A stretch of 26,349 nt of DNA from Candidatus Thorarchaeota archaeon (GTDB lineage: Archaea > Asgardarchaeota > Thorarchaeia > Thorarchaeales > Thorarchaeaceae): NCBI GenBank assembly GCA_046482545.1, contig JAWOEX010000041.1, forward strand, positions 1 through 26,349. The letters are read 5' to 3'. Positions within the stretch are counted from its first letter, which is position 1. Each line of letters starts with the position of its first letter. Positions 1,232 to 16,505 of the stretch are shown here, piece after piece. Both the position numbers and the translations under genes were made by a program. The notes under the pieces are model-generated. The model was not told where the DNA came from, ran no database searches, and was given only the letters and a program-made list of their open reading frames with translations.

Positions 1232-1762
1232 TCAATCTTCGGACAAATATCCGAGTTCTCTTGCCTTATCAAGGATTTTGTTGACGGATTCTTCAATCGT
1301 TTCCTTGTGAGTATGTACTGTAACATCCGGATTGAGCGGCTTCTCGTACGGATCATCGATTCCTGTGAAATTCTTGATTTCACCTGCCAAAGCCTGTTCA
1401 TACAGGCCTTTCGGATCCCTCTCGATGCACACATCAATCGGAGCATCAACGAAGACCTCTATCATATTGGGAATCTCCTCTTTTGCGTAAGCTCGAGTTT
1501 CCCTGTATGGGGAAATGAGCGCAACAACGACGATAACGCCATTACGTGCCAAGAGCTTGGTACAGAAAATAACCCTGTGATTGTGTTCATTTCTGTCTTC
1601 CTTCGAAAACCCAAGGTCTCTACTGAGACCCTGTCGAAGCTTGTCTCCGTCCATTGTCTCGATATAGCGGGATCCCTCAAAGTGTTCGACTAACTTGTTG
1701 GCTATCGATGTTTTCCCTGAACCTGAGTAACCTGTCAACCAAATACAAAATCCATTCTTCAT
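1232..1762 (-). CDS. cysC: Adenylyl-sulfate (APS) kinase
   Basis: P-loop GYSGSGKT, MDGD, LGFSKEDR, ISPY, RDPKGLY, FTGIDDPYEKP. Confidence 0.97.
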   Translation of the reverse strand: MKNGFCIWLTGYSGSGKTSIANKLVEHFEGSRYIETMDGDKLRQGLSRDLGFSKEDRNEHNHRVIFCTKLLARNGVIVVVALISPYRETRAYAKEEIPNMIEVFVDAPIDVCIERDPKGLYEQALAGEIKNFTGIDDPYEKPLNPDVTVHTHKETIEESVNKILDKARELGYLSED

Positions 1763-1765
1763 GTC

Positions 1766-3142
1766 TCATTGACTCCTTATCGTTTGTCCTGTCATGTAGT
1801 CTTTAGTTTCAAGCCCCATGAATTTCAGAATCGTTGGGGCTATGTCCAAGATGTTTTGTGGTCCCCTGACCGATTGGGTTTGGCCCGGAAACCTTGCAAC
1901 ATACATTCCATCCCAATCGTGAACTGCATCATCAGGACCTGCAGCACTCCCGTAGAAGTACATAGATTCATGACCCATGCTACTCGATGCTCTCCAGCAG
2001 AGGTCATCAAAGTAAACCATCAAATCGGGATAGTCACCCTTACAATCTTCATAGATATCCTCAGGCTTGTCTACAATGTTTGTCCACTTCTCACCATTGG
2101 GGCCCCGAACGGTCTGTAATTGCCTCGTGAGATTAGTACGAAATCGCTCATACTCATGTGGTGGGACTGTTCCCTGTTCTTCATAGCCTTCAACATTCAC
2201 GAAGATTCGGGAGTAGTAACCCCCCCATCCCCACGCTTTTGTTTTCTTCCAGTCAATTTCGAGATCTTCGAAAGAACGTGGTTCCGTTGGCTGTTTCCTC
2301 AAGGTCAGCAAGCCATTCTGCTCCAGCCACTGGTTGATACAAAACGCTCCCTTCCTGCCCTTTGCTCCGTGATCAGATGCTAGGATGAACAGCGTATCAT
2401 CGGACATGATTTCAAGAAGCTCACCTAGCTGTTCGTCCAGTAGCTTATAGAAGTCGATAAACTTGGACTCGTACTCATTTCGCGGCTTGTACTTGTGATG
2501 ATTCTTGTCATAGAAGCGCCAGAAACCATGATGTAATCTGTCCGGACCCACCTCCATCAAGACGAAGAGATCCCACGGTTTCTCTTTCATCAAATGCTTG
2601 GCGAGCCGGTGGCGTTTCTTGACCATATCTATAAGATTGCTGTAAAGCTCCTCCTTCTCTTCGGTTCGATAGAACACATCGAGCGAATACTCACCTACCA
2701 CATCCTTGATCTCCTCCATTAGTGAGGATGGATAGGTGTATGTCTTATCGATGCCTGGAGCCAAGAAGCCAGAAACCATTATTCCATTGACCTTCTGAGG
2801 CGGATACGATGGTGGCATCCCAATAACAACCACTTTTCCATCGTTGTCCCCGACAAAATTCCAGATTTTCTTGGGCTGAATCTTGTTAGAATCAGGTATC
2901 CAGACATCCTTGTAGTTGCCTGGTTCTCTGTGCCTAAATCCGTATAGACCCAGCTGGCCAGGGTCACAACCTGTGGCCATGCACATCCAAGCTGGAATCG
3001 TGATAGGGGGTTTTGTACTTCTCAGAGGGCCATAGTTGCTGTTCTCAGTCAGGTGGCTCAGATTTGGCATGACATCTGCCAAATCATCAAACACCAAACT
3101 GGGTGGAACACCATCCCAACCAAGAAGCACAACCTTCTGCAT
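1766..3142 (-). CDS. Alkaline phosphatase superfamily nucleotide pyrophosphatase/phosphodiesterase-like protein
   Basis: LGWDG, PPITIPAW..MATG (Thr nucleophile), DRLHH, SDHG, HDWDG. The ATG at 3142 avoids overlap with sat and follows GAGGT. Confidence 0.88.
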   Translation of the reverse strand: MQKVVLLGWDGVPPSLVFDDLADVMPNLSHLTENSNYGPLRSTKPPITIPAWMCMATGCDPGQLGLYGFRHREPGNYKDVWIPDSNKIQPKKIWNFVGDNDGKVVVIGMPPSYPPQKVNGIMVSGFLAPGIDKTYTYPSSLMEEIKDVVGEYSLDVFYRTEEKEELYSNLIDMVKKRHRLAKHLMKEKPWDLFVLMEVGPDRLHHGFWRFYDKNHHKYKPRNEYESKFIDFYKLLDEQLGELLEIMSDDTLFILASDHGAKGRKGAFCINQWLEQNGLLTLRKQPTEPRSFEDLEIDWKKTKAWGWGGYYSRIFVNVEGYEEQGTVPPHEYERFRTNLTRQLQTVRGPNGEKWTNIVDKPEDIYEDCKGDYPDLMVYFDDLCWRASSSMGHESMYFYGSAAGPDDAVHDWDGMYVARFPGQTQSVRGPQNILDIAPTILKFMGLETKDYMTGQTIRSQ

Positions 3143-3155
3143 CCTTATCACGACC

Positions 3156-4301
3156 TCATTCCACAAAAGGCTCATCAAATTCAAGAATCGTGTCGGCAAC
3201 CTCAGGACGCATCACATCCGGGGGTGGTCGGCGGCCTTCAGATAGCATACCTCGGATTTTCGTTCCTGAGAATATCACGTGTTGATCAGAATCGTGGGGA
3301 CATATCTTATCATTTGCAATGCTGTTGCATTCCTTGCAGTAGAAAAATGAAGCAAAACAAATCGGTGAGATGCCCAAGTCGGGATACTCTTCGAAGATAT
3401 AGTGTGCATCGAGAGGTCCATAGAAATCACCCACCCCTGCGTGATCTCGCCCGACTATGAAATGAGTGCAACCGAAGTTCTTCCGCATGATGGCGTGATG
3501 AATTGCCTCCCTTGGACCTCCGTATCGCATCTCCGTGTGCAGAACAGCTAGGACTGCATACTTTTGGAGATAGTAGTTTCTCATGAGAGTCTTGTAGGCC
3601 CGCAGAATGACCGGATCCTTAAAGTCGCCAGTCTTCTTCTTACCGATAAGGGGATTGATGAAAATGCCATCAATCATGGATAAGGCCGTCTTTTGGACGT
3701 ATTCATGACCAAGATGCGGGGGATTTCGCGTCTGAAAAGCGACAACAGTATGCCAATCTTTCTCTTTGAAGAGAATACGGGTTTCCTTTGGCCGCAATGT
3801 GAAATCGGGATAGGGATTGCCAATTTCGTTGAGTAATCGGACACGCCCCCCCACGAGCGTATCAGCCATATTCATGACCTTGGCAACGCCCGGGTGACGA
3901 GCATCCGTTGTACCGAATACGGATTCGGCAAACTTGGACTTGTCATATTCGTAGATATCTTCAACTTCAAGGGTCGCAGTGGGCGTACCATTGTAGACCA
4001 GTCCAACCATGTCTCCTTCTGTAGTATCTGCAAGCGTCTCCTCATCCACATCGAACACGATTGGTATCGTCCACGGGACGTCGTTGGCAAGGCGGCCGTG
4101 TTCCAAGACCATTTCGAAGTCCACTCGGTTCAGAAAACCATCAAGAGGGCTGAAGACACCATGGGCTATATTGTCAATCTCCTGTGCAATCTCCTTTGTT
4201 ATGCTCATGGTAGGGTACTCATGAAAATTATCGGAGATTCGCTCACTTTCGCTTTTGCTTATTGTTCGTTCTACTAGTCTTCCTCCGTGTGGTCGTTGCA
4301 T
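3156..4301 (-). CDS. sat: Sulfate adenylyltransferase (ATP sulfurylase)
   Basis: PHGGRL, FSPLDGF, FQTRNPPHLGHE, RYGGPREA, GRDHAGVG, CxxC...CPH zinc site, SGTKIR. Confidence 0.97.
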   Translation of the reverse strand: MQRPHGGRLVERTISKSESERISDNFHEYPTMSITKEIAQEIDNIAHGVFSPLDGFLNRVDFEMVLEHGRLANDVPWTIPIVFDVDEETLADTTEGDMVGLVYNGTPTATLEVEDIYEYDKSKFAESVFGTTDARHPGVAKVMNMADTLVGGRVRLLNEIGNPYPDFTLRPKETRILFKEKDWHTVVAFQTRNPPHLGHEYVQKTALSMIDGIFINPLIGKKKTGDFKDPVILRAYKTLMRNYYLQKYAVLAVLHTEMRYGGPREAIHHAIMRKNFGCTHFIVGRDHAGVGDFYGPLDAHYIFEEYPDLGISPICFASFFYCKECNSIANDKICPHDSDQHVIFSGTKIRGMLSEGRRPPPDVMRPEVADTILEFDEPFVE

Positions 4302-4508
4302 AAGTCAAGGCTCCATTGTTCTGATTATGGTGGGACGGTCAGTTCGCATACTGAGTTGAAATCATCTCATGCCATAGTTGGGTGTGGATCAATCTGAGCC
4401 CAACCACGAGTTGCTCTTTTCATGAAGCAAATGGCTGTTCCAAATTCCCTTCTTTGTGTTCAACAGATACACCCTTGTAAACTCTCAACATGCTAGTTGA
4501 TGGGGCCT

Positions 4509-4532
4509 GATTATATTTAATTAAACTTTCGG
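4509..4532 (-). promoter_or_regulatory. BRE-TATA promoter with conserved downstream motif, upstream of sat
   Basis: Minus strand reads CCGAAAG-TTTAATTA-AATATAATC; the same 17-mer occurs at 6615 and, with one mismatch, at 7573. Confidence 0.7.
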
Positions 4533-4599
4533 CCCATTTCATACTTCAATTCAATTTGATTCGATTTTGAACTCAATAGACGACCCTACGAACCACGAA

Positions 4600-5382
4600 T
4601 TATAGTATGATACCGCTTAGAAGAACCCAGATTAATGTGAAAAACCCAACCATTACGATTGACACTCCAACTACCTTCTTCACTACTCCCTGCTCAAGTT
4701 TGGAAGTTGTCAAAGCAGAGAATGGAGAGGCAAGGAGCGCACCAGCTGTTATTCCTATGATCAGGAACATATTAGGGACACCTACGAACAGATAGTAAAG
4801 AAAGAAACCTGCCACGCATATTATACCTTCAACTAGTGCCGTGATTGCAAGGGCTGCACGAGGAGGAATATCGCATAGCATCTGGCCAGATGTTGTTATC
4901 GGTCCATATCCCCCTCCGGATATGCCCTTATTGAAGCCCGCGAGAATTCCCATCCCTGCAATCTTGCCCACTGAGTAATCAATGCACCTATTCCCATTTG
5001 AAAGCGTCAACAAACCCACCATAAGAACTGAAAGTGCAATATAGGTTTTGACAAAGATGGGTGGCAGGACAATATTCGTAAATGTTGATACTGTGACTCC
5101 CGCAAATCCGGTTAAAACAAAGATACCAAGGGACTGTTGCTGTCTCCGGTCATCTGTCAAATCCATGTTATGATATTTCTGGTGAAAACTAGCAGAAACC
5201 AACCCTGCAAAAATCTGACTGAACAGAACTACAGGCACTAGCACCACGGGGTCATAACCCCAAACCACGAGAATTGGAGTGAGGGTAGTCCCATATCCCA
5301 TACCTAAGGTGGCGGCAATATATTCAGATAGAAATGCTACTATGATTAGAATAAGTATTGTAAAAAATTGCATGCTTCTCAT
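4600..5382 (-). CDS. TauE/SafE (TSUP) sulfur-compound transporter, paralog 1
   Basis: About 8 TM segments; ATLGMGYGTTLTP and GFNKGISGGGYGP repeat motifs. Confidence 0.9.
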   Translation of the reverse strand: MRSMQFFTILILIIVAFLSEYIAATLGMGYGTTLTPILVVWGYDPVVLVPVVLFSQIFAGLVSASFHQKYHNMDLTDDRRQQQSLGIFVLTGFAGVTVSTFTNIVLPPIFVKTYIALSVLMVGLLTLSNGNRCIDYSVGKIAGMGILAGFNKGISGGGYGPITTSGQMLCDIPPRAALAITALVEGIICVAGFFLYYLFVGVPNMFLIIGITAGALLASPFSALTTSKLEQGVVKKVVGVSIVMVGFFTLIWVLLSGIIL

Positions 5383-5790
5383 CCCAGAGAACTTATGTAA
5401 AAATTCATGCTGACATATCGGGGTAGTTCATATCAGTATCCCTGATTGTCAGAATCCGTGCGTTTGTATAGCGAATTGACAGCTCATGTGATCTTCTCAC
5501 AAAAATTCTGCCTGTTTTTTCCACAGAACTCAGCCCATGTAAGATTTTTGAGATTCCCTATCCACATATGTGTGTTCCGTTTTTTTCTCAATTAAAACCT
5601 TCTCTTACGTATGTCTTCAAATTCGTTTGTCTAAGGTACTCCAAACTGAATTTAGCAAATAATGCAGGGATTACGAAGTGAAAGTCAAGTGAGATGAAAT
5701 ATATCAGTAGACTGGACATATCTCTATGGCCGGGTTTTGGTCTAGCATGGGTAGCCCCACTGAAAATGCCACGGGAGACGCACTCTTCGG

Positions 5791-6564
5791 TTATACGTAT
5801 CCTCCGGTCAGTACCCATAGAAAAGTGATGAATCCAACAAGAAATGTGCAGGCTGCAATAATCTCCTTCACATGCTGGTCATTGAGCTTGGAAACGGTAA
5901 TTGCAGAAAGGGGAGCTGCAGCCACACCGCCAGCAGTAATCGGAATAATGAATAACAGAGACGGAAAACCACGAATGAATAAATGAATCAGAAAACCAAT
6001 AGCACACAACATCCCCTCGATCAGAGTTGTGATTGCAACAGCAGCCCTTGGCTTGATATCACTGACAATCTGGCCGCCAACTACTATTGCACCATATCCC
6101 CCTCCGGATATGCCTTTGTTGAAAGCGGCTATTGTTCCCATTACCATAAGCTTGCTTTTTGAATACGATATCTCGTGGTTTCTAGTAACAACCATGATCA
6201 CCCCCATGGTCATCACTGCGAGAGTAATGTACATCTTGACTAAGAAACCGGGTAGCGTGATTACTGAAAATGTCGAGAGTAGGATTCCTATCACTCCAGT
6301 TATGCCAAAAATGTAGAACGCGTTCCTCTCTTCCTTATCATCAACTAGATTCATGTTTCTGAATTGGTGATGAAAGGCAGAAGAGACAAAACCAGCAAAA
6401 AACTGAGCGAAAAGGACCACAGGAACTAGGGTGACGGGTTCATAGCCGAGAATAATCAAAGCAGGGGTCAGAATCGTGCCAAAACCCATTCCAACTGTAG
6501 CATCGACATATTCACAGATAAAGGCAACAACTACCAAGACAATGATTGATTCGATCATCGTCAT
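5791..6564 (-). CDS. TauE/SafE (TSUP) transporter, paralog 2
   Basis: CEYVDATVGMGFGT and AFNKGISGGGYG; RBS GAGGAG upstream. Confidence 0.9.
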   Translation of the reverse strand: MTMIESIIVLVVVAFICEYVDATVGMGFGTILTPALIILGYEPVTLVPVVLFAQFFAGFVSSAFHHQFRNMNLVDDKEERNAFYIFGITGVIGILLSTFSVITLPGFLVKMYITLAVMTMGVIMVVTRNHEISYSKSKLMVMGTIAAFNKGISGGGYGAIVVGGQIVSDIKPRAAVAITTLIEGMLCAIGFLIHLFIRGFPSLLFIIPITAGGVAAAPLSAITVSKLNDQHVKEIIAACTFLVGFITFLWVLTGGYV

Positions 6565-6614
6565 CTAATCTCCTCACTGATATAGGCTGATTGAGATAGT
6601 GGTTACGGTTTTTA

Positions 6615-6639
6615 GATTATATTTAATTAAAATTTTGGG
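6615..6639 (-). promoter_or_regulatory. TATA promoter with conserved motif, upstream of TauE paralog 2
   Basis: Plus strand GATTATATTTAATTAAA at 6615-6631, identical to 4509-4525. Confidence 0.7.
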
Positions 6640-6742
6640 AGTGTCTTTTCAAGTGAACAATATGCAATTAGAAGCTTAGGCGTGCCATCGTCTCCTTACA
6701 ATAATGGGTGGAAGGAACCTAAGCCATGAATTCTATCTCGAT

Positions 6743-7516
6743 TCATGCAAAACCTGTAATCAATACCCAAAACAGGGTGACAAGACCAATCGTGAGTGTG
6801 GAAACTGCGACCACATCTTTCACTTGGTGCTGATGAATCTTAGCTATGGTCATTGCTGACAAAGGCGCTGCGATTACAGCCCCAACTGATAGGGAAGCTA
6901 ACATCACAATATCGGGTACCCCCATCCAAACGAGATGAATCACAAAACCTACAATACATATCAAACTCTCAACAAGTGCTGTTATGGCCACGGCTGCTCG
7001 AGGAGGGATATCACTCAGCATCTGCCCGCCGACAGTGATGGGGCCGTAACCCCCACCTGAAATTCCCTTGTTGAACGCTGCAATCAAACCCATAGCAGCA
7101 AGTTTGATAGGAGAGTAAGTGAATCTTCTGTCATTCATCCAAAGCATCACTAGTCCCATCGCTGTAACTGCGGCAGCGATATATATCTCAACATAGATTG
7201 AGGGCAAGACAATCATGGATATAGTAGAGAGGATTACTCCCAGCATACCTGTTATCAAGAACACGAACAGTGCATGTCGTTGCCTTGGTTCTGCAGAGAG
7301 GTGCATATTCTCAAGATTGTGATGAAATATTGAGCTAACAATACCTCCCAAGAACTGACTGAACAAGACAACAGGCACGAAGACGATGGGGAGATACCCA
7401 AGGATGATTAATGCTGGAGAAAGAATGGTTCCAAAACCCATCCCCAAAGTGGCGTCAACATACTCGCAAATGAGCGCGAGGACGGCGAGCAATAGCAACA
7501 CCTCTAACGTTGTCAT
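6743..7516 (-). CDS. TauE/SafE (TSUP) transporter, paralog 3
   Basis: CEYVDATLGMGFGT and AFNKGISGGGYGP; ATG at 7516 preceded by GAGGATG. Confidence 0.9.
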   Translation of the reverse strand: MTTLEVLLLLAVLALICEYVDATLGMGFGTILSPALIILGYLPIVFVPVVLFSQFLGGIVSSIFHHNLENMHLSAEPRQRHALFVFLITGMLGVILSTISMIVLPSIYVEIYIAAAVTAMGLVMLWMNDRRFTYSPIKLAAMGLIAAFNKGISGGGYGPITVGGQMLSDIPPRAAVAITALVESLICIVGFVIHLVWMGVPDIVMLASLSVGAVIAAPLSAMTIAKIHQHQVKDVVAVSTLTIGLVTLFWVLITGFA

Positions 7517-7572
7517 AGTATCATCCTCAAGAGGAAAATCCCACAGCAAAATTTGGGATGTAAACTGTAACA

Positions 7573-7750: not shown

Positions 7751-8104
7751 CTATGTGATGTGTAGAATATCTCCCAAGACCAGCCGAACTCTCGTCAACA
7801 CTCTCTGACTTACCTCGCCAATTATCCCCTCAAATTTCTTTGTAGAAACTGCGCGAATATTATGACAAAGTGCATAAGATTCCTCTCGTAATCCTCCTTC
7901 CCGGTCCATGGGAACGACAGTCCAATAATCGCGTCTTTTTGTGGTTAAAGGAATAGTAATTGCTATGGCTAATTCTTCACTGCCTGGCCCATATTTGGTT
8001 GGCATTGATACAACTAGATTTGGTCTGCGACCTCCCTGTTCATGTCCAACCACAGGATTCAGATTTAGGATAGCTATGTCTCCTGCTTTAGGTGGTTGAG
8101 CCAC
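7751..8104 (-). CDS. Type II TA toxin, MazF/PemK endoribonuclease
   Basis: GDI..LNLNPVVGHEQGGRRP.LVVS, IPLTT, S.ALCHNIRAV. GTG start at 8104 with GAGGTG RBS; 117 aa. Confidence 0.9.
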   Translation of the reverse strand: MAQPPKAGDIAILNLNPVVGHEQGGRRPNLVVSMPTKYGPGSEELAIAITIPLTTKRRDYWTVVPMDREGGLREESYALCHNIRAVSTKKFEGIIGEVSQRVLTRVRLVLGDILHIT

Positions 8105-8259
8105 GGTCTCAGCCCACCTCTTCATCAACACTGGACAAAAACACTCTTTCGACGATTTCTTTATCCTCATTATCCGCAATAATTGCACGGAGTCGCCCTG
8201 TTTCAGGGGCCGCATTGTTCGCTGCTCCAAGCAGGGTTAATTGAGTTAACGTCTCCTGA

Positions 8260-8690
8260 TAACCCGTTTCTTACAGTTTTACCAACTGTATGAAACTCCT
8301 GTGTTCCACCCTTCCCTTGCCCAGCGTCACCGCCATACCGGGGCGCTACCCCCGGCCAAGCAAGGGCTTTGACCGCCATCATGGAGACACGGTCCTTCTT
8401 GCGGCCTCGGCTTCTGTCTCCTGCCCTGACCCGGACACATCACATTCGGGGGCAGCGAGTGTTCCCACAGCTTTTACCACGGCGGGGTTATTATCACTCT
8501 GCCCAGCTTTGTCACCGAAGCTGGCCAGGTCCAATTGGACAAAGCGAACAGCCGCGGACTCTCCCCGGCCTGATGGAGGGCCGTGTGGGAGAGTGAGGAC
8601 TTCTGCTTAGAAGAACCAGTCTTCCTCACAGCCTTCGGGGCTGGGCGCTTCTCCCGTGAGGGAGTGGCCCACCGCCCTAGTCCTACTGGA
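8260..8690 (-). ncRNA. Putative structured RNA (omega-RNA-like) in element copy 1
   Basis: Stems are kept despite sequence change relative to copy 2: CTGCCC/GGGCAG, ACTCTCC/GGAGAGT, CAGCC/GGCTG, CCCTTGC/GCAAGGG, ACAGTT/AACTGT. Boundaries approximate. Confidence 0.6.
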
Positions 8691-8743
8691 CTTCGGTCTC
8701 GTACTGGTTCTAATAAACTCCCCCGCTTGGGTGATAAGAATCG

Positions 8744-8803
8744 TTACAGGAAATCCTACAGATATTTTACATTTTTGCGCCCTGGTTTTTTAGGATTCTG
8801 TAA
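8744..8803. repeat. Helically phased end-repeat array of element copy 1
   Basis: TTACAG at 8744, CTACAG at 8756, TTACAT at 8767 (12 and 11 bp period), plus inverted CTGTAA at 8798; TTACAG also at 8271 near the other end. Confidence 0.7.
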
Positions 8804-9636
8804 GATTTTCGTTACTCCTGAGCCCAATCTCGTAACAGCCTCTCTAATTCATCTAATTTCTCCTCGGTCAAAGATGGTTCTTTAGTCACGAGAAAGGAAA
8901 CAAACATGGTCATGGTCATAAACAACATGATGTTGAAAAGAAGAGTGGCCATTCCATGTTCTTCTGATTTGCTTTCTGCTGCTTGAACAGCATCCGGCAG
9001 ATTGTTGCCTTCAGAAATTGAAATTTCCCGAAATTTATCTCTTAGCTCATTGATGCTGGACCGCTTGGTTTGGTCTGGAATCAAAGGCCACTGTCTAATA
9101 CCAAGAGAAAAAATACTGAGTAGTTTTCTCAGAGAATTAAGAGCGTACGAGAGATTTGAACTCAAAACAGGACCATACAGATTCTCTGTCCTGTCTAGAA
9201 AATCCTCATTGTGAAAGTCATCCACCAAATCCGTCAGCTTTGAGAAGGAGGTCACAGCTTTTTGATATGATTTGTTTATGTTCTGCAACGTCGTTTCGAA
9301 GGAGTGCATTGACTCCTCAAAGACAAGTGTTTTGAGCAAATCCCCGACTTTCTCTTCATTCATCCGATCCAATAATGTCGAATACAGATCATCTTCTTCG
9401 GGATACTCAGTCAAGAAGATGGGAGGTACAAACATGGTTGAAGACAATTATAATTCCCCTCATAGAGTATATGAACGCATCACTATGCCATAGAACGACA
9501 CGCCGCATACTCCTTGAGGAGATATAAAGTATTATGCTCTACGTATGTGCTGTTATTGACATGGAGTTCAAATGACGCCCATATATATTGCAGCTAGAAC
9601 AAATCTATCTTTGAGATAGCTCATAAGGAAACATAC

Positions 9637-10185: not shown

Positions 10186-12131
10186 ATAGGCCCCCAATGA
10201 TTCGGTTCAACCTAGCATATCGATTAGCCAACCCATACTGATTTCATCAAGCCGGTATTGCGGTTAGATAGTTACACCATCTGTTTGACTATCTGTTCAT
10301 CCATCAGGGATAGATTGACATCAATTAGTCAGCATTCCTCTGCTTATTCCACAGATACAGAACTGGAATCGCTACGACAACAGCAGACAGCAGTACGAGA
10401 GGTAATACCCAGTCTGGAGATGGTCCACCATTACCTTGACCCAGAAGCAGATAGGAAATACTGAGTCCATCCTGATTTTTGACAGTGACTTTCAAGGTGT
10501 TGAATGGGGCCACATCAAGGTCGACAATAAGATGTGTGGGTTGCCAATTACGCTGGAACTCAAACGACTCTTCATGTACCTGCGAACCATCCGCAATTAT
10601 GGAGAGGGTGCCATTTGATACAGCGTCTTGCTTGAAAGAATTCCAAACGGACATATTTACAAAGATGCTTCCTGAAGCAGCGTCGAGAGATTGGGAGTCG
10701 ACCTCAATTCGGGGTGCCTCATAGAATCGCTCAAGACGATGCACCCAGTAGTATGTATCGTTACCGCCAGGGATGCGTAATTCCCATGGTATTTCCCCGC
10801 TTTCGGTCACTTCGGTGATGATGACAGGAGATTCTTCTGCCAGAAGAAGTGCCCTATCTCCAAATAGGCCCAGAGTATTCCCGTTTGGAAGGCGATCCGC
10901 ATCGCCCCCAGATGCCGGGAAGTAATATGATTGGTTGTCCGGTCTCCAAGACCAAACCTCCTGCATGATTTTGTTTTCTTCGTCAATTTCGAACTCTACA
11001 AAACCAGAATAACCGGTCGCGTTTTCTAGGTGCATCGTAGAAGGTCGAGACGGATTGTAGAGGTCATTATCATACAGAATGAATCGATTTGGTCCGACCA
11101 ATTCCAAGCTGTGGGAATGAGCCCAAAGGCTGTCAACTGGTGTGTTGTTTGCAGCCAGTACAGTAAAGCTGCCCCATCGACCTGCAGACCACTCGATATC
11201 TTTTGTCGCCCGACTAATTTTCAGAATTATATCTTGATTTCTGAGATTTAGATATACGACATCCTCTTCTTTGTCCCAAACGATGCTGTTAGAATGCATC
11301 CAGTCTGCGCCGCCATGATTGGTCTCATTTGTCCCTAAACTCGAATGAATGGTGGCATTGAAGGGGTATTCTTCTCGTGCATCCCATTGCCAGATCAACT
11401 CACCATCACGGTTATACTCAGAGAGAACATCATAGAGTACTTGTTTTCCATCCCAAATCTCATCCGAGGAAGCATATTCAAGCACCATGAAAGTATCCGT
11501 GTAAGGATTGTAGTCAAACGCATGATGCCCACCAGGGATAGGTAGGGTTTCAGTTGTGCCTGTCTGATAATTCCAAAGCGAAAGATCTCCTTCCTGTCCA
11601 CCCATCAAAACAGTTGTCGAATTGATGAATTTGTGGACGCTGGAAAGTGTGTTATCCATCTGTGCAATGATATCCCCGTTCTGGTCAACGACAAAAAGGT
11701 AGCCTGTTCCCATCGAACGTGTTCCGTTTTGGATCGTAATTTCCACACAAGGAAACAGAGTAAGTCCAGGGGTGTACAAAGAGCTTTGATTGGCTGTTAT
11801 CTGAAATGATATTATTCCCTCACTATCGCCAATGGACTCTCCCGTTAATGTGGCATTGAATATGTTGAATATATCATACACATTCAGTGCCTCGCTAAGT
11901 GGACCCTGAAAGTCTAAATCCCCGTTTTGAAACGCTGCGATTGGAGTCTTCTCCATCTTGACCATGCTCACAAAAACGTCGAAAGACATCGATACAGTAA
12001 TGTCGGCTTCTGAAGGCGTCGATGATGAGGTTTCGATGTCAAGCTCACCATCTGCCAGCTCGTAGATAATACAACCTTCTTCATCAATATCGAGCACAGC
12101 AGTCAGTTCTTTTCCTTCGACAAGATCTTGA

Positions 12132-12565
12132 TAACCCATTTCTTACAGTTCTAGGAACTGCATGAAACTTCTGTGTTCCACCCTTCCCCTGCCAGCGTCG
12201 CCGCTCCCAAGGTACCCGAAGGCCCGTGAGTCAGCAGGGACTTTGTCCGCATTCACTGGAATAGGATTCCTCCCGCGGTCCTGGCTTCTGTCTCCTGTCG
12301 TCGTCCCGGGTCATCACTCCCAGCGACAGCGAGGTCTTCCACAGTTCTTGCCACGGCGTGGTCATGATCACCCACCTCAGCTTTGTCGCCGCCGCAGAGA
12401 TGGCCTATTACAGGCGAGGTGAACAGCCGCGGACTCTCCAGAGCTCGATGAGGCCCCTTGTTTGGAGAGTGGGGACTTCTGTTTAGAAGAACGAGTCTTC
12501 CTTGCAGCTTTCGGCCGCGTGCGTCGTGTTACACCACTAGCCCACTTGCCTAGTCCTACTGAAAC
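12132..12565 (-). ncRNA. Putative structured RNA (omega-RNA-like) in element copy 2
   Basis: Stems CTGTCG/CGACAG, ACTCTCC/GGAGAGT, GCGGC/GCTGC (G-U on the minus strand), CCCTGC/GCAGGG, and a C-UUCG-G tetraloop on the minus strand. Boundaries approximate. Confidence 0.6.
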
Positions 12566-12606
12566 GAAATTTCGTACTGGGCCTAATAAAGTCCTACCGC
12601 CCTCGG

Positions 12607-12680
12607 TCACAGTAGCACTTACAGGAAATCTTACAGATATTGTACACTCTTCCACTCGGATTTTTTAGGATTTTTGTAAA
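12607..12680. repeat. Helically phased end-repeat array of element copy 2
   Basis: TCACAG at 12607, TTACAG at 12619, TTACAG at 12631, GTACAC at 12642 (12, 12, 11 bp period), plus inverted TTGTAA near the end; TTACAG at 12143 near the other end. Confidence 0.7.
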
Positions 12681-13361
12681 ACTTGCCTATTCTTGAACCT
12701 CTGGTGAGTTATCCGCTATGTATTGACAGAAGCTAACGTAATCAGGAATATCAGTCCATGAGAAATTACCCGAGTCCAGTTTTTGTTGAAGACGGGATTG
12801 TATGTCACGTATTCCCTGTGGAGCATCATCCAAGGTAAATGGGTCTGGTTCCTTTGGGGTTAGAATATTGACGATGAAGATGCCAGTTGGAATCGTTATA
12901 ATTAGAATCACTCCAAGGGCTACCAGAGCTTTATTCCGACGCCTCATAAGGAAGCGAACTCTATCACGCCATATGATTCTTGTGAACCACGGGTTGAGCC
13001 TTCAAGCTGAATTCACAGAAAGATGGTATAGCACCAAAATGACGAAGATAGATTCAAATCGACCATAGGTTGAGTGAATACCTCACTTATACAGGCACAT
13101 CAATCGAGAGGTCATTTAATCCATAGGAGAACACGGCCATAATCACTGCAATTGCTGAACAAGAGTTAAATAACGAACAGAGAGCAGCAGAATATTAAGT
13201 ATCGAAAGGAGACCGGTAACCTGTTCTAATCAGAAGTCGTTCAATGATTTGGAAAACTGATTAATCATGCATTTACGAGGTTTTTATGATGGTTTTTGTC
13301 CTCACTGAGAAAACCTCTGAGCTTCTAGAGGGGTTGTGTAGTACAAACAGGTGTAATACTG

Positions 13362-14483
13362 ATGAAAATTAGAAGCAATAAGGATCTAAGCGCGACCGAA
13401 TTCGGTTACCCTCTCTTCATATATTTCTTCGTGAGGTTTTTGAATAACTTCAGCGTCTGCAACGAATTACTGAATCGAATGGAAAACAGGGTATTAGCTA
13501 AAAGGATGGGGAAGGTGAATATTGAATCTCCCATCTACGTAACTGGATTTGCAAGAGCAGGATCGACAATTCTATTGGAAATGCTCAACAGTCACAGGGA
13601 TTTGACATCGCACAGATATTTCCAAATTGGATCGTCAAGCACACCGTATTTTATGAATAGATTCATAGAGAAAGTTCCACTAATGACAGAATTCTCAGAG
13701 AGAGTCCATAATGACAGGATTCGTGTCAACAGAGATAGCCCTGAGGGATTAGAAGAGATATATTGGCAGAATTACTTTGAGAATATATTAGATGAAAATG
13801 AGCCTGACATATTAGATGAAGCTATTAACAATGATGAGTTTGAAAGGTTCTATTCCAATCAAATGAGGAAGTTAATCATTAGTCAGGAAGGAAACAGATA
13901 CGTAGCAAAGAACAATTACGTCATAACAAGAATCGACTACGTTAGAAAGATGTTTCCAAAATCCAAATTCATCATCATGGTTAGAAACCCGATAAATCAC
14001 ATAGCTTCTTTAATCAAGCAGGACATTCTCATCAAAAGGTTGGAAATGCAGGATCCCAGGCTAGTCGATTGGGAGAGCATGGTCGGACATAGGGAGTTTG
14101 GTATTGCGAAAAAATGCATCAATGTGGGCAACAATGTGAGCGAAATTAGATCGCTTTGGAAGAAAGAGGATAGTTACGTCTTGGGATGGGCAAGATACTG
14201 GAGAGAGATATATCAGTATATTCATGAAAAATCCAAGAAGACCAAGGATTTGTTGTTAGTTAGATATGAGGATTTGTGTGAGAAATCCGCTGTTACTATC
14301 GATGGCATCTTCGATTATCTGGCCATTAATGATTATAGTGCAATAAAGAAGAGATACGCAGATATCTTGGAGAAACCCAAGTACTACAACATTTCCTTTT
14401 CGGATGATGAAATGGAATTCATAATCAATGAGACCGGTTCTGTAGCCGACAAATATGGATATGACATAAATGAATCAAGGTAG
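13362..14483 (+). CDS. PAPS-dependent sulfotransferase
   Basis: 5'-PSB loop YVTGFARAGSTIL, 3'-PB motif MVRNPINHIAS, VRYEDL. Confidence 0.9.
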   Translation: MKIRSNKDLSATEFGYPLFIYFFVRFLNNFSVCNELLNRMENRVLAKRMGKVNIESPIYVTGFARAGSTILLEMLNSHRDLTSHRYFQIGSSSTPYFMNRFIEKVPLMTEFSERVHNDRIRVNRDSPEGLEEIYWQNYFENILDENEPDILDEAINNDEFERFYSNQMRKLIISQEGNRYVAKNNYVITRIDYVRKMFPKSKFIIMVRNPINHIASLIKQDILIKRLEMQDPRLVDWESMVGHREFGIAKKCINVGNNVSEIRSLWKKEDSYVLGWARYWREIYQYIHEKSKKTKDLLLVRYEDLCEKSAVTIDGIFDYLAINDYSAIKKRYADILEKPKYYNISFSDDEMEFIINETGSVADKYGYDINESR

Positions 14484-15366
14484 CTTCAAGGTTAAGTTGA
14501 TTTCGTGGGTTTCAGCAGGAAGATTTGTCTTCTTTCCCTGGGTTTTGCTGAACAGTCTATTCGGAGCAGTTCTCGGCAGTTTTCATCTTCTTGATTGGTT
14601 TTTTTCCTTTCTTGTAGCTTTCTCAACACTCACAATGGGGCATTTCATGAATGATTGGCGTGATTTTGTCAATGGTCTAGACAAGATGGATGAGGGAAGT
14701 GAGAAGAAGCCATACACTAATGCACAACAGATTCTTCCAAGAGGTTTACTTTCATTACGCACAGTGAAAATATCAGCTTTGTTTTTCGGGTTACTAGGTC
14801 TAATCATTCTAATAGGATACTTTGATTTCAGTATAGATGCTTACGCGTTCTATCTGATAGGGGTATTGATGGCTCTCACGTATACGGATTTTGCGAAACC
14901 GAAAGGTATTGGAGAAATACACATGTTCTTGGGGCATGGTCTTTCAACTGTGTGTTTTACCTATTCAATCATAAATGGCTTGGACGTGATAGGTTTTCTT
15001 GGAGGGTGTCTACTTGGTTTTTGGTCCGCAGCTGCATATACTGTCGATCAGTGGAAAGACATCCAAGTTGACCAAGATAATGGAATAAGTACGCTTGCAC
15101 ATAAACTTTCGAGCAAAGGGCTGGAACCTTGGAAATGGTGGACATTCGTAGTACTTGGGAGTATGTTCATACAGGCTGCGCTGATAGTGTTCAATGTTCT
15201 ATCAGTAACGACTGCCATAACCGTTTTGATGATACCGCTTGCGTGGCTAGTACATAGGAAATTGAAGCAGAATTTTGATGAGGGTTTATTGCTGGTCTTG
15301 GTGTGCATGTGGGTATATACATCACTTCTGATTGCAGGAATAGCTATTGACATGTGGGTTATCTGA
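14470..15366 (+). CDS. UbiA-family prenyltransferase (MenA-like)
   Basis: Multi-TM protein with Asp-rich motifs NDWRDF..GLD and DQWKDI..D...G..TLA; overlaps the sulfotransferase gene by 14 nt. Confidence 0.85.
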   Translation: MNQGSFKVKLISWVSAGRFVFFPWVLLNSLFGAVLGSFHLLDWFFSFLVAFSTLTMGHFMNDWRDFVNGLDKMDEGSEKKPYTNAQQILPRGLLSLRTVKISALFFGLLGLIILIGYFDFSIDAYAFYLIGVLMALTYTDFAKPKGIGEIHMFLGHGLSTVCFTYSIINGLDVIGFLGGCLLGFWSAAAYTVDQWKDIQVDQDNGISTLAHKLSSKGLEPWKWWTFVVLGSMFIQAALIVFNVLSVTTAITVLMIPLAWLVHRKLKQNFDEGLLLVLVCMWVYTSLLIAGIAIDMWVI

Positions 15367-15542: not shown

Positions 15543-16505
15543 TTATTGGTGTTCTCTCCGCCAATAGTAGATGATTACCAATGCAGCAAGCAGAACAGCG
15601 ACTACTCCACCACTCACAAGATATGGATTCATGGAAGGACTTTCAGCCTGAGTGCATTGTAATGATAGATTCCCTCCGTAAAGATCCATCATGACTGGTT
15701 CAGGTGCAGTCCCGTTGCAGAGCTCCTCATATTCAGGAAAGGCAGGGAATACTACCTGTTGGATATACTCCTGTGATTTCGGAGATGCAAACGCAAATGC
15801 TTCTTCAGCGCAGACATCACCGTTTCCATCAGTGTCTGCAGTTTCGTTCATAAATGCCGAGGTGAAGAAGTGGTTGAATACGTCTCCAAGTACCGGTAAG
15901 CCCTCATCTGTCCCACCAGCCCATGCCAGCTCGTCACGCCCGACAGATCCAACCCGGACTTCAGGGTTATCACCGGGAATTCCTGAAAGCAGTTCACCGG
16001 CATTGCAAGTCGAGAAAGCCATCAGTTTCCTCGCAGCCGGGATTAATTCCCACGTTTGTCCCACAAGGACTCCATTTCCTATGACATCTTTCAGCCAAGA
16101 TCCGTGAGCAAAGACGAAAAACACAACCACATCATTGTCATCAGCTTTCTCCCTGAGCCATTCTAGAGCATTCAACATGCTGGATTCGGTGATGGCTTCA
16201 TTGATAATTCGGATGTGATCTGTAGCCCATCCAAGCGAATGGAGGGTATTGTTCCACTTGGTGCTGTCTGCATGGCCAGTGGGTAGATCTGTCCACCCTT
16301 CAGGATACTGAAGCATTTCCATAATGACCGCCCACCCTTCGTCAGGGTTATCTTGAGCAGATACAGGTTGCATGGATGGTGCAACAGTTCCATAGCTAAC
16401 AAGTAGTATGGCCAATACCAGAGCTGGCATTCGTGCCGTGTTCCTCAAGAACCATTTGTTCACGTACGTCTTCCTCAAGGCTTCTCTGGTCCATTTTCTT
16501 TGCAT
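15543..16505 (-). CDS. Secreted/membrane-anchored caspase-fold cysteine peptidase (clan CD, C13/C14-like)
   Basis: His motif DVVVFFVFAHG and Cys motif FSTCNAG; Ca-loop-like DTDGNGDVCAEE; N-terminal signal and C-terminal TM. The start may be downstream of 16505. Confidence 0.7.
   Translation of the reverse strand: MQRKWTREALRKTYVNKWFLRNTARMPALVLAILLVSYGTVAPSMQPVSAQDNPDEGWAVIMEMLQYPEGWTDLPTGHADSTKWNNTLHSLGWATDHIRIINEAITESSMLNALEWLREKADDNDVVVFFVFAHGSWLKDVIGNGVLVGQTWELIPAARKLMAFSTCNAGELLSGIPGDNPEVRVGSVGRDELAWAGGTDEGLPVLGDVFNHFFTSAFMNETADTDGNGDVCAEEAFAFASPKSQEYIQQVVFPAFPEYEELCNGTAPEPVMMDLYGGNLSLQCTQAESPSMNPYLVSGGVVAVLLAALVIIYYWRREHQ

Follow-up and report, generated by a model that had tools for sequence, protein, structure and literature searches.

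Two miniature derivatives of an aCas1-TnpB element in a Thorarchaeota genome and their predicted single-guide omega-RNA

The analysed stretch of 26,349 nucleotides (the window) contains two diverged copies of one element of ~570 bp, both on the minus strand (copy 1 at 8254–8821, copy 2 at 12126–12696). Our analysis largely confirmed the first-pass annotation; the copies are MITE-like, protein-less derivatives of a Thorarchaeota aCas1-TnpB element. For the whole, the explanation that we consider probable is that such derivatives are mobilised in trans and carry a locked single-guide RNA, which acts as a TnpB decoy or has no effect. The parts of both copies and their hosts are as follows.

12126–12696, minus strand: copy 2, a complete non-autonomous element of 559 bp plus the 6-bp core on either side; empty allele in G001/G002.
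12691–12696, minus strand: left core of copy 2, TCAAGA.
12616–12690, minus strand: left end of copy 2, common to full-length aCas1-TnpB elements, with repeated TGTAA/TTACA motifs.
12584–12590, minus strand: TATA-like box of copy 2, TTTATTA, at a constant distance of 30 nt upstream of where the RNA is predicted to start.
12132–12560, minus strand: predicted omega-RNA scaffold of copy 2, ~430 nt, with a presumptive 5' start.
12253–12556, minus strand: fossil TnpB C-terminal tail of copy 2, codons 460–559 and stop, with a 1-nt insertion near 12410.
12139–12167, minus strand: terminal hairpin of copy 2, an anti-repeat fused to a partial repeat, without the GTTCACTCA loop.
12126–12131, minus strand: right core of copy 2, TCAAGA; predicted guide start at its second base (12130), running into the host flank, in a register taken from the leader unit of the full loci.
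8254–8821, minus strand: copy 1, likewise a complete non-autonomous element; its TCAGGA cores lie at 8816–8821 and 8254–8259.
8711–8717, minus strand: TATA-like box of copy 1.
8260–8687, minus strand: omega-RNA scaffold predicted for copy 1, with a folding z of −3.0.
8379–8683, minus strand: fossil TnpB tail of copy 1, with a 1-nt deletion near 8587.
10325–12947, minus strand: host SCP2-arylsulfotransferase gene split by copy 2; 685 codons are open once the element and one core are removed.
8113–9447, minus strand: host ORF of ~258 aa split by copy 1, intact in two congeners; 3' coordinate approximate.

Both sites are empty in two congeneric genomes, where the host ORFs are intact. Exactly the same single core was found in three of the four empty alleles, from which we infer that 6 bp are duplicated and that the insertions are recent. 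The first-pass annotation had written the motif as TCARGA. The boundary motif is TCNNGA, occurring as ten different cores, and in 18 of 32 copies the two ends carry the same one. Nearest neighbours by left-end sequence share the NN in 24 of 40 cases, compared with 6.6 expected (p = 1e-4), and a tree test yielded 11 changes versus 14.3 after shuffling. The NN follows the element lineage and is not a random draw from the target, a pattern that a plain cut-and-paste duplication does not predict. Inspection of the ends, flanks and targets revealed no end-flank or target-target similarity beyond the 6 bp, and there was no bridge-RNA-like covariation of the target with the element interior.

Regarding the surroundings, a PemK/MazF gene is located just downstream of the ~258-aa ORF interrupted by copy 1 (7751–9447 for the two together), and this ORF may be the partner of the PemK/MazF-like toxin gene. 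The SCP2-arylsulfotransferase fusion split by copy 2 lies near sulfotransferase and UbiA genes (10325–15366). Sulfate activation genes and three TauE paralogues occupy 1232–7549, and a membrane-anchored caspase-domain (Peptidase_C14) protein is encoded at 15543–16505.

The Thorarchaeote genome (3.05 Mb, 98.9% complete) was searched with a profile of the element. This yielded ~100 matches, 32 near full length and ~70 partial. The copies are mosaics of exchanged modules, and the ~570-bp form is predominant in three genomes. Shorter mini-derivatives without the RNA, e.g., L091, are also inserted with intact cores; thus, the RNA is not needed for mobility. Derivatives of ~160–240 bp that keep both ends and little or none of the scaffold were observed at L090, L091, G000 C9:343837-343997 and C23:15732-15973. 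Back-to-back and nested copies (G000 C20:181316-182444; C41:25041-25600; C9:359466-359777) show that one element can insert within the core or the body of another. The viral contigs searched contained no relative. Elements of other genera have 14–28 nt pieces of tRNA genes after their right end, some identical between genomes (L053, L054, L055, L056, L057, L058, L059, L062), and L057 and L064 carry short arrays of right-end-like repeats. The tRNA matches of these sequences lack TNAT, and the sequences may be guides or insertion scars.

The suggestion that a fossil TnpB tail lies inside the RNA was borne out in its essentials. The same minus-strand peptide is present in both copies, ending in a TGA (8379–8381 and 12253–12255) that also aligns with the tnpB stop, and each copy carries one frameshift at a place of its own, namely the deletion in copy 1 and the insertion in copy 2 given above. 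The assignment to TnpB holds from GLG on (~100 aa), whereas the leading LL.PVR....V is not derived from TnpB. Homology starts exactly at GGACTAGG, codon G460, at window positions 12556 and 8683 (tblastn). Intact TnpBs of the same genome matched both copies in TBLASTN with 53–90% identity and E values down to 3e-30, and the matched tails belong to PF07282/NF040570-like proteins. The synonymous third-position differences noted earlier did not amount to an excess. Counted against the nearest intact parent, the differences at the three codon positions were 15/9/13 for copy 1 and 17/14/16 for copy 2; over 29 copies, they amounted to 407/398/445. The intact relatives had a pN/pS of ~0.74 in the tail. 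Protein selection on the tail of the miniatures was rejected, because the differences are even over codon positions and the reading frame is broken in 26 of the 29 copies. The miniatures conserve RNA structure, not the peptide. They are internal-deletion derivatives of tnpB elements, as first proposed, with an unusually long RNA (~430 nt) that overlaps the 3' end of tnpB and reaches the right end.

Two complete elements of 8.2–8.3 kb in the genome (C28 and C20) share both their left and their right end with the miniatures, and their cores match; such elements also occur in G001 and G023. Six zinc-ribbon TnpB matches directly adjoin partial repeat copies. The parent TnpB ORFs (540–620 aa) carry the motifs GIDLG and NADxN; RuvC-II has a Gly, an alternative Glu precedes the zinc finger, and a ~120-residue tail follows the RuvC motifs. 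The RuvC-II Gly was found in ~96 of 97 parsed homologues and the alternative Glu in 120 of 120. By these motifs, the parent TnpB is of the RuvC-II-rearranged type with an intact RuvC (D, alternative E, D). Relatives encoding the parent protein are recorded as Thorarchaeota. At G000 C28:236400-237625, an Lrp-type HTH start and the RuvC half of a TnpB form an in-frame fusion.

Each complete element also carries a giant divergent gene of 1,400–2,000 codons. Sequence searches against Pfam, NCBIfam and PDB did not recognise its product (aCas1); only the fold search does. The predicted model of the N-terminal 250 residues (pLDDT 91) matches the Cas1 catalytic domain. The top 12 structural matches were all Cas1 or casposase (best Z 13.2, rmsd 3.6, 180 aligned), and the conserved E, H and D are retained. 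A PD-(D/E)XK-like motif seen by eye in the giant protein was not established, its pattern matching only 3 of 31 homologues. In 19 of 26 loci, tnpB has the Cas1-like gene as its neighbour. Profiles for tyrosine recombinases, serine resolvases, IS110 and standard Cas1 gave no match in the 98.9% complete genome, and its one Y1 gene is unrelated and broken. Since these searches turned up no further recombinase candidate, aCas1 is probably the mobiliser, as co-occurrence and the modelled fold suggest. The PF00589 query, which did not find XerA either, detected no tyrosine recombinase in this archaeal genome.

These searches also bear on the possibility that the copies belong to an IS607/IS605-type or IS110-type element, or to an intron (IStron), moved by a recombinase located elsewhere. 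The matched and inherited core within an inverted TC..GA motif does resemble site-specific recombination, and both window copies are in the sense orientation inside host ORFs. We regard this explanation as extremely unlikely in view of the missing matches to resolvase, phage integrase and IS110 profiles in the genome, the state of the Y1 gene, and the Rfam scan of the window, which gave no match. Relative to long ORFs genome-wide, two copies were sense, three antisense and 13 outside; this lack of orientation bias led us to reject the intron reading.

Consensus folding of the scaffold (alifold) yielded −95.9 for the sense strand versus −45.1 for the antisense strand, and compensatory changes were present in 59 of 96 consensus pairs. 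Compared with shuffled sequences, copy 1 folded with a z of −3.0, and copy 2 (z 0.0) was no better than the shuffles. Between the left end and the scaffold, the miniatures carry ~60 nt not found in the parents, including a purine run. TTTATTA stands at a fixed 33–34 nt before GGACTAGG in the miniatures; this box was not found in the parent elements. A near-invariant AGTA (29 of 29 at two positions) lengthens the first helix of the miniatures. By its spacing, the TATA-like box looks like an archaeal promoter set at the RNA start. Metatranscriptome contigs from two studies showed a 10–100 times higher depth over the scaffold than on the flanks; these contigs stem mostly from other copies, and a 100-copy repeat and DNA carry-over could inflate the depth. 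As assembled sequences, they carry no strand or RNA-end information.

The copies could also be passive relics, of which only the ends matter, the RNA region being carried along and homogenised by recombination without current function. This is an unlikely but serious reading. It accommodates the ~70 partial copies and the RNA-less minis, the mosaics of swapped modules, the lack of a folding excess in copy 2, and the fact that much of the covariation is inherited from the parents. It does not readily explain the deletion boundary, which falls exactly at the scaffold start behind the conserved TATA-like box and invariant AGTA, or the dominance of the ~570-bp form in three genomes, or the deep scaffold RNA contigs.

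The full loci contain a short unit upstream of tnpB, which ends like the right end of the element:

G000 C20:230354-230428, C28:135224-135296, C23:122309-122380 and C28:2686-2749: crRNA-like tnpB leader.

The 11–15 nt after this unit match the unit's own TATA region/promoter in the same locus. The match between leader guide and promoter was 11.0 nt for cognate versus 4.2 nt for permuted pairs, and the repeat:anti-repeat duplex had −20.2 versus −17.5 kcal/mol (p = 5e-5 for both, which overstates the significance because the related genomes are not independent). The leader repeat pairs with the 'hypervariable' segment of the scaffold and its loop, with compensatory changes. The last leader bases pair with TGACC in the scaffold, and this second helix also covaries (TGATAG:CTATCA, TAACC:GGTTA). 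We read the leader as a crRNA-like unit that may guide TnpB to its own promoter, pairing with the scaffold as a crRNA does with a tracrRNA. The GTTCACTCA loop is kept in only 7 of the 32 miniatures; it is lost in 25 and deleted in both window copies. The calculated pairing with the leader amounts to ~−7 kcal/mol for the window copies versus ~−23 kcal/mol for loop-bearing copies. With the loop missing and the leader pairing weak, the window copies look locked to a fused flank guide. An orphan leader-like repeat at G000 C38:60479-60550, which is followed by another sequence and has no listed tnpB match beside it, may be a stand-alone crRNA-like gene.

The promoter match is preceded by T at −4, A at −2 and T at −1 in 25 of 25 self-targets. 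Position −5 is T in 22 of the 25 and G in none. This implies a TAM of approximately TTNAT and a guide that would start one base after GGTYA; because the TAM was derived from AT-rich promoters, part of TTNAT could be promoter sequence. Applied to the miniatures, this register places the guide start at the second base of the core. That the guide comes from the right-end junction and flank, as the first-pass annotation had it, is most likely so; the scaffold ends at the right end.

It had also been proposed that TCARGA is the TAM and that a TnpB acting in trans with the RNA of the copy could cut the empty allele, i.e., homing as in IS605/IS607. The TnpB catalytic residues are indeed conserved (the alternative Glu in all 120 homologues), the scaffold reaches the right end so that the guide would be flank-derived, and homing is what TnpB is usually proposed to do (PMC10691335). 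TCARGA is, however, the duplicated core and present in both states; it is not a discriminating TAM, as the 'TAM' and target of the empty site would recur unchanged at the filled right junction. In the guide register, TNAT is absent from the empty sites, and in other registers its occurrence there did not exceed chance (0–1 of 24, top strand). None of 40 left flanks has T at the base corresponding to −4, compared with a background of 29%. At the filled right junction the sequence is GTTAT, and in most cases the genome contains no other TNAT-preceded guide match. Since the empty sites lack the inferred TAM and TCARGA occurs in both states, homing through cleavage of the empty allele is unlikely; in the form with TCARGA as TAM, we consider it very improbable.

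The same junction raises the alternative of a role for the cis guide in transposition. TnpB loaded with the RNA of a copy would mark that copy's own right junction and/or pick targets through a 5–6-nt seed, and aCas1 would perform the chemistry. For most copies, the sole TNAT-preceded guide match is their own junction (GTTAT, perfect match). If true, this mechanism would explain the NN inheritance seen among nearest neighbours and in the tree test, and the right end of relatives is often followed by a 14–18-nt tRNA-gene piece common to several genomes. Still, G at TAM position −5, never seen in the 25 self-targets, may protect the junction; targets are dissimilar beyond the 6 bp and show no internal bridge-like covariation; new targets lack the TAM; and the inheritance could reflect DNA overlap on the excised element or an allele-specific preference of aCas1. 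On balance, this role of the guide is doubtful. The broader picture of an RNA-guided Cas1 transposon, in which the junction guide would mark the donor end or pick targets, the split leader would autorepress and the miniatures would be minimal self-guiding donors, is likewise rather improbable.

In the preferred reading, that of trans-mobilised miniatures with a locked guide, the Cas1-like protein of the full element would mobilise the miniatures. Each copy would transcribe a natural single-guide RNA of ~430 nt from the TATA-like box, with core and flank as its guide. In the full elements, the scaffold GTTCACTC loop would pair instead with the crRNA-like unit in the tnpB mRNA leader, and the leader guide (11–15 nt), matching the tnpB promoter after TTNAT, would lead to autorepression. 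The RNA of the window copies would bind TnpB but, having lost the loop, could not load the repressing guide, nor would it have a TAM-bearing target at the empty site. This RNA would most likely titrate TnpB from autorepression, which would favour helper expression, or do nothing.

The aCas1-TnpB elements unite two ancestors of type V CRISPR, the Cas1 integrase and TnpB, in one mobile element. The group is published but has hardly been characterised, and PMC10691335 treats its mobility, ends, guide and TAM as conjecture. From the miniatures come precisely defined ends, a minimal donor, recent insertions for which empty alleles exist, and a rule for a 6-bp target whose core is inherited. When the leader unit is added, a TAM (TTNAT) and a register of the guide can be predicted. 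Thus, aCas1 transposition, TnpB guidance and the scaffold switch between fused and split (tracr:crRNA-like) guides become testable.

The omega-RNA of TnpB in IS200/IS605 and IS607 elements (ISDra2 and its kin) overlaps the 3' end of tnpB, terminates at the right end and takes its guide from the junction. The elements described here share the 3' overlap, the right-end terminus and, as predicted, the junction guide, and the predicted TAM resembles TTGAT. They differ in the scaffold length (~430 nt), the ~120-aa tail after RuvC-III, the 6-bp duplication, and in having no Y1 or serine TnpA linked to tnpB. Furthermore, the target site is not the TAM, and the empty site would not be targetable by the inferred TNAT. 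TNAT was absent at the empty sites and present at the filled right junction, the reverse of what homing in IS200/IS605 and IS607 leads one to expect. IS200/IS605 parentage was rejected, as the parent is an aCas1-associated TnpB element with target duplication.

The aCas1-associated TnpB (Cas1H-Asgard-1/2 group) was described by Altae-Tran et al. in 2023 (PMC10691335). Our elements resemble the Cas1H-Asgard group, as portrayed there, in the Asgard host, the Cas1-like gene beside tnpB, the repeats at the ends, and a hypervariable segment that lies downstream of tnpB, bounded by a conserved T and GTTCACTCA. This T-[hypervariable]-GTTCACTCA signature was present in the parents, the relatives and those 7 of the 32 miniatures that keep the loop. 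The parent element fits the aCas1-TnpB group by its Cas1 fold and this signature. PMC10691335 proposes the hypervariable segment as the guide; unlike that proposal, the segment here shows covariation with the leader repeat, in the manner of an anti-repeat. Neither ends nor a target rule, TAM or miniature derivatives of aCas1-TnpB are described in the text of PMC10691335 used here.

Casposons (PMC9939771) are similar in the Cas1-fold candidate integrase, the target duplication and the tRNA-gene pieces frequent at the junctions of relatives. ORF lists and Pfam scans of the two complete elements revealed neither a family B polymerase gene nor true terminal inverted repeats. In contrast to casposons (PMC9939771), there is no PolB seen and there are weak subterminal inverted motifs only, the duplication is 6 bp versus ~15 bp with a lineage-inherited core, and the helical domain of Cas1 is here fused to an uncharacterised region of >1,100 aa. 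A parallel in guide architecture is seen with TranC and split omega-RNA intermediates (PMC13565253; bioRxiv 10.1101/2025.09.28.678669), where one scaffold likewise serves a fused guide or a separate crRNA-like partner. Unlike TranC, no CRISPR array was found here, and the single crRNA-like unit is the tnpB leader, with its own promoter as the predicted target; the miniature copies, moreover, appear to revert to a locked single guide.
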